DNA from: Cyanobium gracile PCC 6307
GTDB lineage: Bacteria; Cyanobacteriota; Cyanobacteriia; PCC-6307; Cyanobiaceae
NCBI RefSeq assembly: GCF_000316515.1
Contig: NC_019675.1
Location: 1,171,964 to 1,203,963, forward strand
Direction of reading: 5' to 3'
DNA: 32,000 bases
Both the position numbers and the translations under genes were made by a program. This document shows, piece after piece, positions 17,042 through 32,000 of this stretch; the stretch's first letter is position 1; the number at the start of each line of letters is the position of its first letter. Below the pieces are notes generated by a model, which searched no databases, was not told the origin of the DNA, and saw only the letters and a list, made by a program, of their open reading frames with translations.

Positions 17042-18084
17042 GGATCCTCGTCACCGGGGGCGCCGGCTACATCGGCAGCCATGCCGTCAGGGCCCTGACC
17101 AGGGCGGGGCACCAGCCCGTGGTGCTCGACAACCTGGTTTACGGCCATGCCGACATCGTCGAGAAGACCCTGGAGGTGCCGCTGGTGCTGGGCCAGGTGG
17201 GCGACCGTGAGGTGCTCGAACCCCTGCTGCGCGGCCGCCATCCCGCCCTTGACGGCACCTCCCTGGAGGGCAAGCCGATCGAGGCGGTGCTCCACTTCGC
17301 CGCCTACGCCTATGTGGGTGAGTCGGTGACCGATCCGGCCAAGTACTACCGCAACAACCTGGGCGACACCCTCACCCTGCTCGAGGCCCTGGTGGCCACC
17401 GAACGGCCGTTGCCGATCGTGTTCTCCTCCACCTGCGCCACCTACGGCATTCCCCAGCAGGTGCCGATCACCGAGGACCACCCCCAGGCCCCGATCAATC
17501 CCTACGGCCGCAGCAAGTGGATGGTGGAGCAATTGCTCACCGACTTCGCGGCGGCCTACGGCCTGCCCAGCGTGATCTTCCGCTACTTCAATGCCGCCGG
17601 TGCCGACCCCGACGGCGACCTGGGAGAGGATCACAATCCGGAGACCCACCTGATCCCGAGGGTGCTCGACACCATGAGCGGCCGGGAGCCCTACCTGCAG
17701 ATCTTCGGCGACGACTACCCCACCCCGGACGGCACCTGCATCCGCGATTACATCCACGTGGCCGACCTGGCCGACGCCCACGTCCTGGGACTGGAGCGGC
17801 TGCTGCGGCTGCGGGAACGGGAGGAGAACGAGCGCCGACCGCTGATCTACAACCTCGGCAACGGCACCGGCTACTCGGTCCAGCAGGTGATCGAGACCGC
17901 CAAGGCCGTCACTGGTCGCGGCTTGCTGGCCCACGTGGCCAAACGCCGGGACGGTGACCCTCCCCAGCTGGTGGCCGGGGCCACCCGGGCCCACCAGGAA
18001 CTCGGCTGGCGGCCCCGCTTCCCAGAGCTGGAAACGATCATCGAACACGCCTGGGCCTGGCACCAGCGCCGTCACCAGGGCTGA
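17038..18084 (+). CDS. galE: UDP-glucose 4-epimerase
   Basis: MRILVTGGAGYIGSH, FSSTCATYG, NPYGRSKWMVE (YxxxK), FRYFNAAGA and RDYIHVADLA. The GTG start overlaps the fcl stop (GTGA). Confidence 0.9.
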   Translation: MRILVTGGAGYIGSHAVRALTRAGHQPVVLDNLVYGHADIVEKTLEVPLVLGQVGDREVLEPLLRGRHPALDGTSLEGKPIEAVLHFAAYAYVGESVTDPAKYYRNNLGDTLTLLEALVATERPLPIVFSSTCATYGIPQQVPITEDHPQAPINPYGRSKWMVEQLLTDFAAAYGLPSVIFRYFNAAGADPDGDLGEDHNPETHLIPRVLDTMSGREPYLQIFGDDYPTPDGTCIRDYIHVADLADAHVLGLERLLRLREREENERRPLIYNLGNGTGYSVQQVIETAKAVTGRGLLAHVAKRRDGDPPQLVAGATRAHQELGWRPRFPELETIIEHAWAWHQRRHQG

Positions 18085-19228
18085 GGGCCCCGTGCCCTGG
18101 CCAGGGCCTGGCCAGGGGCTCCCCGATGAAGACCCCCTGCCCGGGCATGGCCACACTGCGCCAGTAGCTCTCGATCAGGGTGTCGCCCCGGAGGTAATAG
18201 CTGAGCAGCAGCCCGGGATCGGGGAACTTGGCCGTGAAGTTGCACGGTTCCACCACGGTGCCGTAACTGCCGGTGGCGCCGGCCTCGAGCCAGCGCAGCG
18301 CGCTCATCTGCGGGCTGTCCGTCAGCTGCCCGCCGAAGGAAGTGAGGTGATCGGCGACGGCACCGGGCCGGAAGCGGTTGGTGCGCACGCCCGCGGGGAA
18401 GGCCAGCCCCGTGACGTAGGCCATCACGTCCTGGGCTCCCACCAGGGTGTCGCCGAGGATGATCCGCACCCGCAGGCGGGAGTCGATGGCGGCCTTGACC
18501 CTGCCGTAACCGGCGGCCCGACGGTTGCGCCGGGCATCGCCGGTGCTCAGCAGGTAGGCGGTTCCCGGCGGTGCGGTCCCGTCCGAGGCCACCCCCTGCT
18601 GGATCAGACGCCTGGCTGCCGCCGCGCTGGTGGCGGCCAGCATCATGCTGGGCCGGATGCGCAGCTGATCCCATGGGCGGCGCACGTCACCGCGGGCGAA
18701 CAGGGGGCTCAGGGCTGTGGTGCGGCAACCGCTGGCGCAGAAGCGGGGATCGAGGCCGAGGCTGAAGGCGCTGGTGATCGACTGGCAGCCGACCCGGTAC
18801 GGGGCCGCCCAGGCCAGGGCATAGACCTGGACATGGGCCGGGGTCCGGCGGTCGACGCTGGCCTTGATGCGGCGGAACAGGGCAGGGTTCAGCGAGGCTT
18901 CCCCGGGCGCGAAGCGCACCCGGATCACCTGGTCCGGGGGGATCAGCCGGGCCGCCTGGTACTGCCGGCCGATGGTCTCGCTGAGGGGATCGGCGGCGTT
19001 GACGATGATCGCCAGGTGGCGATGGTCGAGGGGGCCGCGGGAGGGCGGTCCGGCGTCGTTGGAGCGGCTGTCACCCCATGGGCTGCCGCTGGCCGCCAGG
19101 GCCAGCGGCAGCAACAGCGCAACCCCGACAGCCAGGCGACGGCGCCACGCACCCGGTGGCCCGGCGCTGATCGATGCAGCCCCGGCCGGGGGTCGGGAAA
19201 GCGGAGGCCATGGCGAGGGAGAGGCCAT
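18038..19228 (-). CDS. Secreted TIGR03790-family-like protein (uncharacterised family)
   Basis: Only the 3' 396 codons of the listed 1052-aa ORF look real. The Sec-type signal is RRRLAVGVALLLPLALAASG. It is followed by HLAIIVNAADPLSETIGRQYQAARLIP..VIRV, then GAVADHLTSFGG...WLEAGATGSYGTVVEPC...YYLRGDTLIESYW...GVFIGEPLARPW. This matches my recollection of TIGR03790 proteins, and that recollection is not verifiable here. The 3' end overlaps the galE 3' end by 47 nt. Confidence 0.6.
   Translation of the reverse strand: MASPSPWPPLSRPPAGAASISAGPPGAWRRRLAVGVALLLPLALAASGSPWGDSRSNDAGPPSRGPLDHRHLAIIVNAADPLSETIGRQYQAARLIPPDQVIRVRFAPGEASLNPALFRRIKASVDRRTPAHVQVYALAWAAPYRVGCQSITSAFSLGLDPRFCASGCRTTALSPLFARGDVRRPWDQLRIRPSMMLAATSAAAARRLIQQGVASDGTAPPGTAYLLSTGDARRNRRAAGYGRVKAAIDSRLRVRIILGDTLVGAQDVMAYVTGLAFPAGVRTNRFRPGAVADHLTSFGGQLTDSPQMSALRWLEAGATGSYGTVVEPCNFTAKFPDPGLLLSYYLRGDTLIESYWRSVAMPGQGVFIGEPLARPWPGHGALSPGDGAGARPRRVR
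18095..18118. repeat. Tandem 11-bp palindromic repeat (CCTGGCCAGGG x2) at the galE / TIGR03790-like convergent junction
   Basis: CCCTGGCCAGGG|CCTGGCCAGGGG. 18095-18103 can pair with 18109-18117 (9 bp, loop GGGCC). The element is 10 nt after the galE stop and inside the last 27 codons of the minus-strand gene. Confidence 0.8.
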
Positions 19229-30432: not shown

Positions 30433-32000
30433 GGCGGCGGGGCCCACCCGGCGGGAGCGGCTGGGGGTGTGGCTGAAGGACCGGCTCCGCTACGAGTGGC
30501 TGCTGCGCCGTCCGGCACCGGCCCAGCTCGGCATCGCCAACCGCCGCGAACGGCTGGAGGCCGCCCCCGATGGATTCGGTCAGGCCTGTCTGTGGCGCTA
30601 CACCTCTCGCCTGCACGCGCCGGCCGTCCAGCCGGAGCTCGGCCGGCGCCTGCTGAGCCGCTGCCTGGCGGCGGCACCGATCCGGCGCCGGCCCACCCCC
30701 GGCTGGGCCGATGGGCCACCGGAGCTGAGCGTGCTGATCGGCCACCGGGGTACCGAGCGGCTGCCCCTGCTGCTGGCCACCCTCGAGTCCCTCGCCACCC
30801 AGGAGGGCGTCCGGCTCGAATGCCTGGTGATCGAGCAGGACAGCGAGCCCCGCATCGCCGACCGGCTTCCGGCCTGGGTGCGCCACATCCACGGCCCCCT
30901 GCCGGACCCCACCGCCCCCTACAACCGCTCCCACACCTTCAACCTCGGCGCCCGCGAGGCCCACGCCCCGGTGCTGCTGCTCCACGACAACGACATGCTC
31001 GTGCCCACCGGCTACGCCCGCCGCCTGCTGGAGCGGATCAGCCGGGGCTACGCGGTGGTGAACCCGAAGCGGTTCGTCTTCTACCTCGATGAGACCCACA
31101 GCGCGGCGGTGCTGGCCGGCTCGGGCGCCTATGACGCCAGGCCGGCGGAGGCGATCGTGCAGAACCTGGAGGCCGGCGGCTCGATGGCGATCACCGCCGA
31201 GGCCTACGCCGCCATCGGTGGGATGGATGAGGGCTTCGTCGGCTGGGGCGGGGAGGACAACGAGTTCTGGGACCGCTGCCTCACCCGGCCCACCTGGATC
31301 TGGGGCTACGAGCCGATCGTGCACCTCTGGCACCGGGGCCAGCCCCTCAAGCACCAGAAGGACAACCCCAACCTGGAGAGGGCCCGGGCCGTGATGCGGC
31401 GACCCGCCCTCGAGCGCATCGCCGCCCTGCGGCCCGCCCCGGTGAGCGGCCTGGTCAGCACGATCATCCCGGTCCACAACCGCGCCGCCCTGCTGCGCGA
31501 AGCGGTGGCCAGCGTGCTCGAGCAGGACCACCGGCCGATCGAAATCGTCATCGTCGATGACGGCTCCAGCGATGACACCGCCGCCGTGGCCGACGGGCTG
31601 GCCGCCGCCCATCCGCAGACCATCCGGGTGATCCACCAGCCCAACGGCGGTCCCGGTGCCGCCCGCCAGCGGGGCCTGGACTACAGCCGCGGGGAATTCG
31701 TCCAGTACCTCGACAGCGACGACCTGCTGCTGCCCGGCAAGTTCAGCGCCCAGGTGGGCGCCCTGCGGCGCTCCGCCGGAACCGGGATCGCCTACGGCCC
31801 CAGCCTGGAGGAGGACCACTCCCGGCGGCCCGTGGAACGGCGCGGCCCGATGCGGGCCACCGGGATCCCCCTGGAGCGGCTGTTCCCCCGGCTGCTGCTG
31901 GAGCGCTGGTGGACCACCAGCTGTCCCCTCTACCGGCGCGACCTGCTCGACCGCATCGGCCCCTGGCAGCCCTGGATCAACGAGGAGGACTGGGAGTACG
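30425..32000 (+). CDS. Two-domain GT-A glycosyltransferase (galactosyltransferase-like GT2 domain + classical GT2 domain), 3' end outside window
   Basis: Not in the supplied ORF track because it has no stop in the window. I translated all 525 codons from ATG 30425 to 32000 and found no stop. Domain 1 has LSVLIGHRGTERLPLL, LLLHDNDMLVP and GGMDEGFVGWGGEDNEFWDR. Domain 2 has VSTIIPVHNRAALLREAVASVLEQDHRPIEIVIVDDGSSDDT and QYLDSDDLLLP. ATG overlaps the upstream stop by 8 nt (ATGGCTGA). The listed 645-aa minus ORF 29882..31819 is its shadow. Confidence 0.82.
   Translation, partial: MAEAAGPTRRERLGVWLKDRLRYEWLLRRPAPAQLGIANRRERLEAAPDGFGQACLWRYTSRLHAPAVQPELGRRLLSRCLAAAPIRRRPTPGWADGPPELSVLIGHRGTERLPLLLATLESLATQEGVRLECLVIEQDSEPRIADRLPAWVRHIHGPLPDPTAPYNRSHTFNLGAREAHAPVLLLHDNDMLVPTGYARRLLERISRGYAVVNPKRFVFYLDETHSAAVLAGSGAYDARPAEAIVQNLEAGGSMAITAEAYAAIGGMDEGFVGWGGEDNEFWDRCLTRPTWIWGYEPIVHLWHRGQPLKHQKDNPNLERARAVMRRPALERIAALRPAPVSGLVSTIIPVHNRAALLREAVASVLEQDHRPIEIVIVDDGSSDDTAAVADGLAAAHPQTIRVIHQPNGGPGAARQRGLDYSRGEFVQYLDSDDLLLPGKFSAQVGALRRSAGTGIAYGPSLEEDHSRRPVERRGPMRATGIPLERLFPRLLLERWWTTSCPLYRRDLLDRIGPWQPWINEEDWEY

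Follow-up and report, generated by a model that had tools for sequence, protein, structure and literature searches.

A probable heteropolysaccharide locus of the Cyanobium clade, headed by a HepA-like ATP-binding cassette half-transporter and accompanied in relatives by an exosortase

A stretch of 32,000 nucleotides from Cyanobium gracile PCC 6307 (contig NC_019675.1, positions 1,171,964 to 1,203,963 of the forward strand; hereafter the window) carries, from position 19604 to its right edge, ten tightly packed genes on one strand, headed by a HepA-like ATP-binding cassette (ABC) half-transporter and followed by established and candidate glycosyltransferases (GTs) and an asparagine synthetase (AsnS)-like enzyme. 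On balance, the window appears to contain the left third of a locus, inherited vertically and comprising ~40 kb and ~32 genes, which in the picocyanobacteria of the Cyanobium clade would direct the formation of a complex extracellular or capsular heteropolysaccharide by a Wzy/Wzc/Wza-type, exosortase-associated system with an ABC flippase, a reading favoured here with some reserve. The polysaccharide probably contains fucose and galactose. The whole operon stands in the same order in 31 species-level genomes with 74-97% amino-acid identity, and the complete cluster of relatives encodes neither Wzx nor Wzm/Wzt.

As the window is GC-rich (0.61-0.77), mechanical lists of open reading frames (ORFs) are full of spurious frames, and the true frames were chosen by third-position GC (GC3) analysis, which leaves one frame per stretch, with GC3 values of 0.80-0.94 in the chosen frames. 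Within the array, ATGA start/stop overlaps occur at 22499, 24046, 26164 and 29089 and 8-nt overlaps at 25256 (with a GTG start) and 30425, the other intergenic gaps being 49 nt (after the ABC gene), 15 nt and 22 nt, in exact agreement with an initial annotation of this DNA. Families were assigned by Pfam and NCBIfam profile searches, with PDB sequence comparison for some proteins, and these assignments bear out the surface-glycan locus described in that annotation as well as its placing of a divergent TIGR03790 gene and of gmd-fcl-galE.

The product of the first operon gene is a type-IV ABC exporter, ABC_membrane and ABC_tran being fused on one 639-aa polypeptide. Among 188 NCBIfam models the best was HepA_fam (NF045513; 462.7 bits, end-to-end alignment), followed by MsbA (TIGR02203; 363.9 bits), an MsbA-related model (325 bits), HlyB (316.8 bits), the NdvA/ChvA glucan exporter (305 bits) and PglK (NF050066; 206.3 bits). 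The first of these scores lies below the HepA equivalog cut-off of 725 bits, making the protein HepA-like and not a demonstrated HepA orthologue, and the MsbA and PglK scores likewise lie below their equivalog cut-offs (602 and 1000 bits). Comparison with the PDB gave generic ABCB-type similarity, with MsbA 3b5x as the best half-transporter (256 bits). As the initial annotation had stated, the only inner-membrane exporter is a half-transporter with fused transmembrane and nucleotide-binding domains (TMD-NBD) of the lipid/glycan-exporter type. In Anabaena, hepA lies among GT genes, adjoining hepC in the heterocyst envelope polysaccharide (HEP) island (PMC4390870).

Neither Wzm/Wzt nor KpsM/KpsT was found, as no ABC-2 permease and no stand-alone NBD occur in the window or in four loci of relatives (L037, L038, L119 and L120, the L numbers being handles for the loci examined). 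Nor is a Wzx, sought as a Polysacc_synt/MOP-family protein, present among the listed genes of the same four clusters, in which the gene spacing leaves no room for one. The lack of Wzx and Wzm/Wzt noticed in the window thus extends to the complete cluster of relatives. Because of this absence and the likeness to HepA, the most economical role that can be proposed for the ABC protein is translocation of a lipid-linked glycan, of which it is probably the flippase.

Relatives were collected by a genome scan with the GT4 at 29089-30432 as query, followed by tblastn of all window proteins. The query recovered 31 species-level genomes with 74-94% identical proteins, belonging to Cyanobium, freshwater 'Synechococcus', Aphanothece and several metagenome-assembled genomes (MAGs), so that ~30 species of Cyanobium/Synechococcus 5.2 bear the operon. 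In the closest relative, Aphanothece cf. minutissima CCALA 015 (L011), identity amounts to 88-97%, with 76% for the variable GT4. In the more distant L120, the cluster proteins are 48-72% and the flanking housekeeping proteins 74-90% identical, and the left flank is identical in its gene order (pdhA, arc6, ffh, rpsP, phoH, BI-1, gmd, fcl, galE, TIGR03790, ABC); the right flank, era-cpeS, recurs in metagenome contigs. The locus had initially been taken for a strain-variable island, a view that this conservation contradicts: the gene order is shared by the 31 species, both flanks consist of the same housekeeping genes, the operon does not stand out from the genome in GC or GC3, and only single GT slots vary. 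With the locus conserved and syntenic in relatives, the island part of the initial annotation falls by that annotation's own standard.

The variable genes are the GT4 slot at 24046-25263, the GT8, which is missing from L003, L023 and L120 and hence dispensable in some relatives, and one downstream GT, a GT-B-like gene missing in L021 and L025. The GT4 slot is empty in L010 and L015 and is taken by low-GC cassettes in L008 and L021. As a side observation, this slot, which the AsnS-like gene and the first GT2 enclose, is a hotspot (L008:271-6100; L021:4193-6166), the low-GC cassette of L008 measuring ~5.8 kb and including a different GT2, and the content in L021 being different as well. Four MAG records (L002, L017, L018 and L030), titled Tabrizicola, Rhizobium, Bordetella parapertussis and Candidatus Sulfopaludibacter, carry a clearly picocyanobacterial operon and look like mislabelling in public records.

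In relatives the operon extends ~17 kb past the window edge and reaches ~17 GT domains in all. Following the dual GT2, whose full-length homologue is L011:11346-13367 (673 aa), L011 encodes a GT2 with a tetratricopeptide repeat (TPR) tail, a GT2-GT4 fusion, a GT-B-like protein, an HpsP-like GT4, a 485-aa membrane protein and a GT2. The loci L037 and L038 carry the series on with an NAD-dependent sugar dehydratase/epimerase, a GT4, a glutamine-hydrolysing AsnB, a NodU-type carbamoyltransferase and a GT2, and then a DUF218 protein, a short-chain dehydrogenase/reductase (SDR)-like protein and a priming transferase of PF00953 (WecA/WbpL/MraY family), for which WecA (89 bits) and not MraY is the best model. 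L119 shows the remaining order, namely WecA-like, WbpM-like, exosortase, 222-aa ORF, protein tyrosine phosphatase (PTP)-like, Wzc-like, Wza-like, proline-rich protein and beta-barrel outer-membrane protein (OMP), after which the housekeeping genes era-cpeS-trmD follow. From the ABC gene to the OMP gene the array spans ~40 kb. L029 and L119 belong to the same contig of Synechococcus sp. CCY 9618, with ~1.8 kb unread between them. In Cyanobium sp. CACIAM 14, the locus tags of the TIGR03790 gene (ER33_03685), the membrane protein (03610) and the exosortase (03555) form one run, and a scan with the WecA-like protein found the same downstream order repeated in many metagenome contigs.

The WbpM/PglF-type UDP-N-acetylhexosamine (HexNAc) 4,6-dehydratase encoded after the WecA-like gene is membrane-bound. 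The exosortase, named 'cyanoexosortase A' by JGI, was assigned by PF09721 (94.9 bits) and the TIGR04178 signature (48.3 bits, cut-off 23), its best subtype model being CrtA (123.9 bits, cut-off 150; CrtB 41 bits), and the 222-aa ORF overlaps its stop codon. The PTP-like phosphatase carries the motif HCMAGRERS, the Wzc-type tyrosine autokinase, encoded on the opposite strand, scores 129.8 bits on TIGR01007 (cut-off 108), and the Wza-type protein contains Poly_export and SLBB domains. In relatives, therefore, Wzc, Wza and a priming phosphoglycosyltransferase occur together as in the Wzx/Wzy-dependent pathway, and an exosortase lies within an extracellular polysaccharide (EPS) locus, an embedding that has been described in general terms (PMC1569441; epsSMASH preprint). 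The initial annotation had seen no priming transferase, polymerase or outer-membrane export gene, which holds inside the window, while the relatives add a WecA-type transferase, a Wzy/SEDS-like protein, Wzc, Wza and the exosortase.

Both the exosortase and the 222-aa ORF are missing in L047 and L048, compared with L039, L045, L049 and L119; this joint gain and loss suggests that the 222-aa ORF encodes an obligate exosortase partner. L047 and L048 keep WecA-WbpM-PTP-Wzc-Wza-era-cpeS. The two proteins that end the cluster after Wza in L119, the proline-rich protein of 359 aa (16252-17331) and the beta-barrel OMP of 204 aa (17400-18014), gave no family and no PEP-CTERM tail. In L049, the WecA-like gene is followed by a stretch that looked poor in ORFs; rRNA was considered there and rejected, since Rfam returned nothing and the stretch encodes WbpM, exosortase, Wzc and Wza at lower GC3.

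The LPS (lipopolysaccharide) pathway offers another explanation for the left part of the array, in which the ABC protein would be an MsbA-type flippase of lipid A/LPS core and the first GTs would build the LPS core beside a separate EPS locus. It draws on the second-best scores of the MsbA models and the PDB match to MsbA, on the resemblance of the GT8 to LPS core galactosyltransferases, and on the conserved, core-like character of the locus. HepA_fam nevertheless exceeds MsbA by ~100 bits over the full length, and the ABC gene with its short gap leads into an uninterrupted, overlapping same-strand array that reaches the priming transferase and the exosortase. Since, moreover, the GT8 is dispensable in several relatives and evolution has been faster in the cluster than in the housekeeping genes beside it, the LPS explanation is considered improbable.

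For the 485-aa polytopic membrane protein of relatives, no family model reached its threshold. Its 277 close homologues are all unnamed and all picocyanobacterial, and a profile search returned 759 cluster representatives, revealing a sizeable, unannotated family of 470-490 aa. The AlphaFold2 (AF2) model is all-helical, with a predicted local distance difference test (pLDDT) score of 79 and a predicted TM-score (pTM) of 0.82, and its sole significant PDB fold matches are to FtsW (8p1u and 8bh1; E 4e-4 and 1e-3, probability 1.0). FtsW has the SEDS fold class, which is related to Wzy and WaaL. Sub-threshold O-ag_pol_Wzy matches were found in 3 of 31 family members, and a remote homologue from Thermoanaerobaculia (E 2e-54 to the profile), encoded in a GT-rich cluster with a carbamoyltransferase, weakly matches Wzy_C. 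Judging from the sequence profiles and the structure model, the protein is concluded to be a putative Wzy/WaaL-class enzyme. The remote homologue is gene 10001-11428 of L121/L122 (Thermoanaerobaculia-type contigs), whose cluster also holds formyltransferases, methyltransferases, a polysaccharide deacetylase and an acyltransferase besides the carbamoyltransferase; because of this homologue, the family would form a widespread, unannotated Wzy_C-like clade beyond cyanobacteria.

The class of this protein bears on a further alternative, according to which a large, non-repeating glycan is built whole on undecaprenyl pyrophosphate in the cytoplasm and flipped by the ABC protein in the manner of PglK or Wzk, the membrane protein then being a WaaL-type ligase that transfers it onto lipid A-core or a different acceptor, for example PEP-CTERM proteins processed by the exosortase. 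ABC-type flippases such as PglK and Wzk are those known to move fully assembled glycans, the GT domains are very many and different, the Wzy_C family matched by the remote relative includes O-antigen ligases, and the GT8 scores 110 bits on the NCBIfam model of LPS core alpha-galactosyltransferases. This alternative is unlikely, though, as the cluster contains a Wzc-type kinase of the polysaccharide co-polymerase class PCP-2a, a phosphatase and a Wza-type OPX protein (for outer-membrane polysaccharide export), the hallmarks of polymer export that depends on Wzy and not of LPS ligation, and three family members of the membrane protein weakly match the polymerase family O-ag_pol_Wzy.

Under the favoured reading of a Wzy/Wzc/Wza-type system, the WecA/WbpL-type transferase would prime undecaprenyl phosphate, the first sugar probably being a 6-deoxy-HexNAc supplied by the WbpM-type dehydratase. 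Up to ~17 GT domains would lengthen the lipid-linked unit from GDP-fucose (Gmd/Fcl), UDP-galactose (GalE) and other donors, and the unit might be decorated by amidation, through the AsnS-like ligase and AsnB, and by the carbamoyltransferase. A homodimer of the HepA-like ABC protein, proposed as translocator because the cluster encodes no Wzx, would carry the lipid-linked glycan across the inner membrane, and the SEDS/Wzy-like membrane protein would polymerise the units. Chain length and export would be governed by the Wzc-type autokinase with the PTP-like phosphatase and by the Wza-type channel, and the cyanoexosortase-A-like exosortase would process PEP-CTERM proteins that bind or anchor the polymer, with the exported TIGR03790 protein as a putative accessory of the exosortase/EPS system. 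The ABC-flippase-dependent pathway of the initial annotation survives insofar as the ABC protein apparently takes the place of Wzx; a pure PglK type is contradicted by the Wzy/SEDS-like, Wzc, Wza and exosortase genes of relatives.

A more specific version can be offered only tentatively. In this hybrid route, a HepA/MsbA-type ABC protein would replace Wzx for a unit of up to ~18 sugars on undecaprenyl pyrophosphate, feed the Wzy/SEDS-like family and Wzc/Wza and, coupled to cyanoexosortase A and TIGR03790, build a glycoprotein mucilage for switching between single cells and microcolonies in freshwater picocyanobacteria.

Several points weigh against the favoured reading. About 17 distinct GT domains are far above what a repeat unit usually needs, and the genes past position 32000 are known from relatives, from which the continuation of the C. 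gracile genome is extrapolated. The ABC protein stays under every equivalog cut-off, so that its substrate is not fixed by the models, and the search for Wzx covered the cluster, leaving room for a Wzx encoded elsewhere in the genome. For the membrane protein, TM-scores against PDB structures are modest (0.34-0.49), and the evidence does not distinguish a polymerase from a WaaL-type ligase. The exosortase falls short of the CrtA cut-off, and it is not obligatory for the glycan pathway, as L047 and L048 keep Wzc/Wza in its absence. Finally, a regular-expression scan of all examined DNA for the PEP-CTERM motif gave only off-frame artefacts and no match in a real frame; PEP-CTERM genes are usually located elsewhere, as single-gene operons (PMC1569441).

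The features of the window that belong to the locus are collected in Table 1. At least nine GT domains had been counted initially, seven of which pass the Pfam thresholds (GT8, GT4, GT2, GT2, GT4 and the two of the dual GT2), the GT-B-like and GT-A-like proteins remaining under them. The former is the best-conserved gene of the operon (86-97% identity) and has no NCBIfam match and no PDB sequence relative, its homologue in L038 showing a weak Gtf3_C match; the latter has no PDB sequence relative. Both are plausible candidate GTs.

The AsnS-like protein, called amidoligase-like in the initial annotation, begins with MTIQ and lacks Cys2, and thus has no glutaminase nucleophile. Its sole solved relative is the carbapenam synthetase CarA (1q15, E 8e-5), and its match to a macrolactam-cyclase model is weak (45.6 bits, cut-off 300). 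Together with the scores of ~300-317 bits of the ABC protein on the NHLP bacteriocin exporter and HlyB models, these similarities would fit an ABC exporter of peptide or protein, for example of a substrate of type-I secretion or of a lasso-type peptide that the AsnS-like enzyme makes, with GTs glycosylating a protein. Such a route is very improbable: the cluster has no C39 peptidase domain, membrane-fusion protein, lasso-peptide protease, recognition element (RRE) or precursor ORF, the AsnS-like gene is embedded among GT genes and conserved with them, and a polyprenyl-phosphate priming transferase, Wzc and Wza are present. The lasso-peptide/beta-lactam-type reading of the AsnS-like/ABC pair was rejected for want of a protease, RRE and precursor and because the gene stands among GT genes. 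The enzyme is a candidate for the amide-forming modification of a sugar acid.

Table 1. Features of the glycan locus within the window.
Feature	Coordinates	Strand	Evidence and remarks
gmd, GDP-mannose 4,6-dehydratase	14818..15942	+	TIGR01472 571.9 bits, cut-off 415
fcl, GDP-L-fucose synthase	16073..17041	+	NF047922 470 bits, full length; Pfam Epimerase 211 bits
galE, UDP-glucose 4-epimerase	17038..18084	+	TIGR01179 414 bits, cut-off 262
Exported TIGR03790-family protein	18038..19228	-	396 aa from ATG at 19228; TIGR03790 207.9 bits, cut-off 67
Divergent intergenic region, TIGR03790 gene/ABC gene	19229..19603		no ORF with coding GC3
HepA-like ABC half-transporter, first operon gene	19604..21523	+	639 aa; PF00664 83.9 bits and PF00005 118.3 bits
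GT8 glycosyltransferase (retaining alpha-hexosyltransferase family)	21573..22502	+	PF01501 151.7 bits
AsnS-like ATP-pyrophosphatase	22499..24049	+	Asn_synthase 44 bits, residues 156-236; SGGFDS PP-loop
GT4 glycosyltransferase, variable slot	24046..25263	+	Glycos_transf_1 33.9 bits; GC3 0.80, below neighbours
GT2 glycosyltransferase	25256..26167	+	PF00535 95.4 bits; 85-91% identity in most relatives
GT2 glycosyltransferase	26164..27048	+	PF00535 42.4 bits
Weakly GT-B-like 373-aa protein	27064..28185	+	Glyco_transf_4 21.7 bits, cut-off 28.5
Weakly GT-A-like 294-aa protein	28208..29092	+	Glyco_tranf_2_2 19.5 bits, cut-off 27.3
GT4 glycosyltransferase	29089..30432	+	Glyco_trans_1_4 67 bits, Glyco_transf_4 36 bits
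Dual GT-A (GT2 + GT2) glycosyltransferase, cut by the window edge	30425..32000	+	PF00535 in two stretches, 136.7 bits; Glyco_transf_7C

The left edge of the glycan locus is marked by gmd. The score of fcl lies slightly below the NF047922 cut-off of 500 bits; galE overlaps at its start with the fcl stop and, at its 3' end, over 47 nt with the convergent TIGR03790 gene. The placing of gmd beside fcl-galE-TIGR03790 is retained even in the distant L120, fitting the product with fucose and galactose that was suggested initially from the adjacency of gmd-fcl-galE.

Membership of the exported protein in TIGR03790 is secured by a match over model positions 2-311 of 316, and its N-terminus, in which RRR precedes a hydrophobic helix (residues 28-45), is consistent with export. 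The protein has at least 5737 homologues, and its divergent pairing with the ABC gene is kept in L010, L015 and L120, the TIGR03790 gene being physically part of an exosortase-containing EPS locus. This fits the TIGRFAMs family TIGR03790, which is not known from genomes without an exosortase. The family has no Pfam model, and a literature search on TIGR03790 found no paper. The AF2 model is weak (pLDDT 63), and its Foldseek matches in the PDB, periplasmic-binding-protein and Rossmann-like, were all insignificant; therefore no function is claimed. The intergenic region between the divergent genes presumably holds the promoters of both; scans of 17900-22000 for sigma-70 and terminator consensus sequences gave no matches.

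Elsewhere in the window, positions 1-1960 have a lower GC content (0.58-0.60 versus 0.65-0.75 elsewhere) and contain a partial ORF (2-811) with no family and glf, encoding UDP-galactopyranose mutase (815-1960; TIGR00031 399.6 bits, cut-off 303.75). This segment may be a second, horizontally acquired glycan islet making galactofuranose. A 297-aa ORF on the minus strand (5996-6889), with no Pfam or NCBIfam family, lies in an islet of GC 0.61 flanked by a group-2 sigma-factor-like gene (5051-5983) and pdhA. The ORF at 2792-4828, in a high-GC stretch, was considered as a secreted PEP-CTERM protein and rejected, as by eye it resembles a housekeeping NAD(P)H-hydrate repair enzyme of YjeF type.

According to a phylum-wide survey, the Synechococcus/Prochlorococcus/Cyanobium clade has lost most EPS genes, and cyanobacterial EPS genes are scattered or in small clusters (PMC4594306). 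A contiguous ~40-kb cluster conserved in the freshwater Cyanobium clade is a counter-example to that survey. Among its bearers are morphotypes that form mucilage and colonies, for instance Aphanothece cf. minutissima. The cluster is a concrete candidate, at the genetic level, for the formation of microcolonies and mucilage. It is also a natural test case for the flipping of lipid-linked glycans by ABC proteins of the HepA type. The uncharacterised families TIGR03790 and the Wzy/SEDS-like membrane protein of 470-490 aa gain a genomic anchor from it, and cyanoexosortase A, as yet unstudied in its role, gains a first context; a literature search for Cyanobium together with exosortase found no paper.

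The nearest known systems each share parts with the locus, which is the equivalog of none. In Nostoc, the crtB exosortase gene is embedded in an EPS locus together with homologues of Wzy, Wza and Wzc, and lectin binding shows fucose and galactose in the polysaccharide (PMC12188702). The likeness to this crtB/hormogonium polysaccharide (HPS) system of Nostoc punctiforme includes the exosortase beside Wzy (here a Wzy-like protein), Wza and Wzc homologues, a small ORF directly 3' of it, and many GTs, with the downstream GT4 of L011 matching the HpsP model along its whole length (257.7 bits) and a GT2 domain scoring 111.5 bits on HpsN, both far under the equivalog cut-offs (550 and 425). The exosortase is of CrtB type in Nostoc and CrtA-like in the Cyanobium clade, and the hps loci are dispersed, whereas all GTs stand here in one contiguous cluster. 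Further differences from Nostoc are the host, a unicellular picocyanobacterium that is non-motile, the HepA-like ABC gene at the head of the operon and the attached TIGR03790 gene.

The HEP island of Anabaena sp. PCC 7120 (HepA alr2835, HepC alr2834) likewise places a fused TMD-NBD ABC protein among GT genes (PMC4390870). In contrast to it, the present locus belongs to organisms with no heterocysts, uses a WecA-type (PF00953) priming enzyme, includes an exosortase and TIGR03790, and has an ABC protein that scores well below the HepA cut-off.

With the XrtA/PEP-CTERM EPS loci of Proteobacteria (Methylobacillus eps and zooglan; Haft et al. 2006, PMC1569441; epsSMASH preprint) the locus has in common the exosortase, a chain-length/tyrosine-kinase protein, a Wza-type exporter, an AsnB-type amidotransferase and many GTs. 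The scores on the XrtA-system models nevertheless all lie below their cut-offs (AsnB 308, Wzc 95 and Wza 68 bits), none of the PrsK/PrsR/PrsT regulators was seen in the examined loci, and the exosortase subtype is cyanobacterial. The XrtA systems work with Wzx; the present cluster has none, and its operon begins with an ABC half-transporter.

PglK of Campylobacter, Wzk of Helicobacter and MsbA resemble the ABC protein in being fused TMD-NBD type-IV exporters, found with glycan clusters that have no Wzx. Those systems operate without Wzy, Wzc and Wza, and the scores of the protein reach only 206 of 1000 bits for PglK and 364 of 602 bits for MsbA. The locus is thus set apart from all of them by its exosortase subtype, an ABC protein in place of Wzx, a single 40-kb array, its TIGR03790 partner and its picocyanobacterial host.

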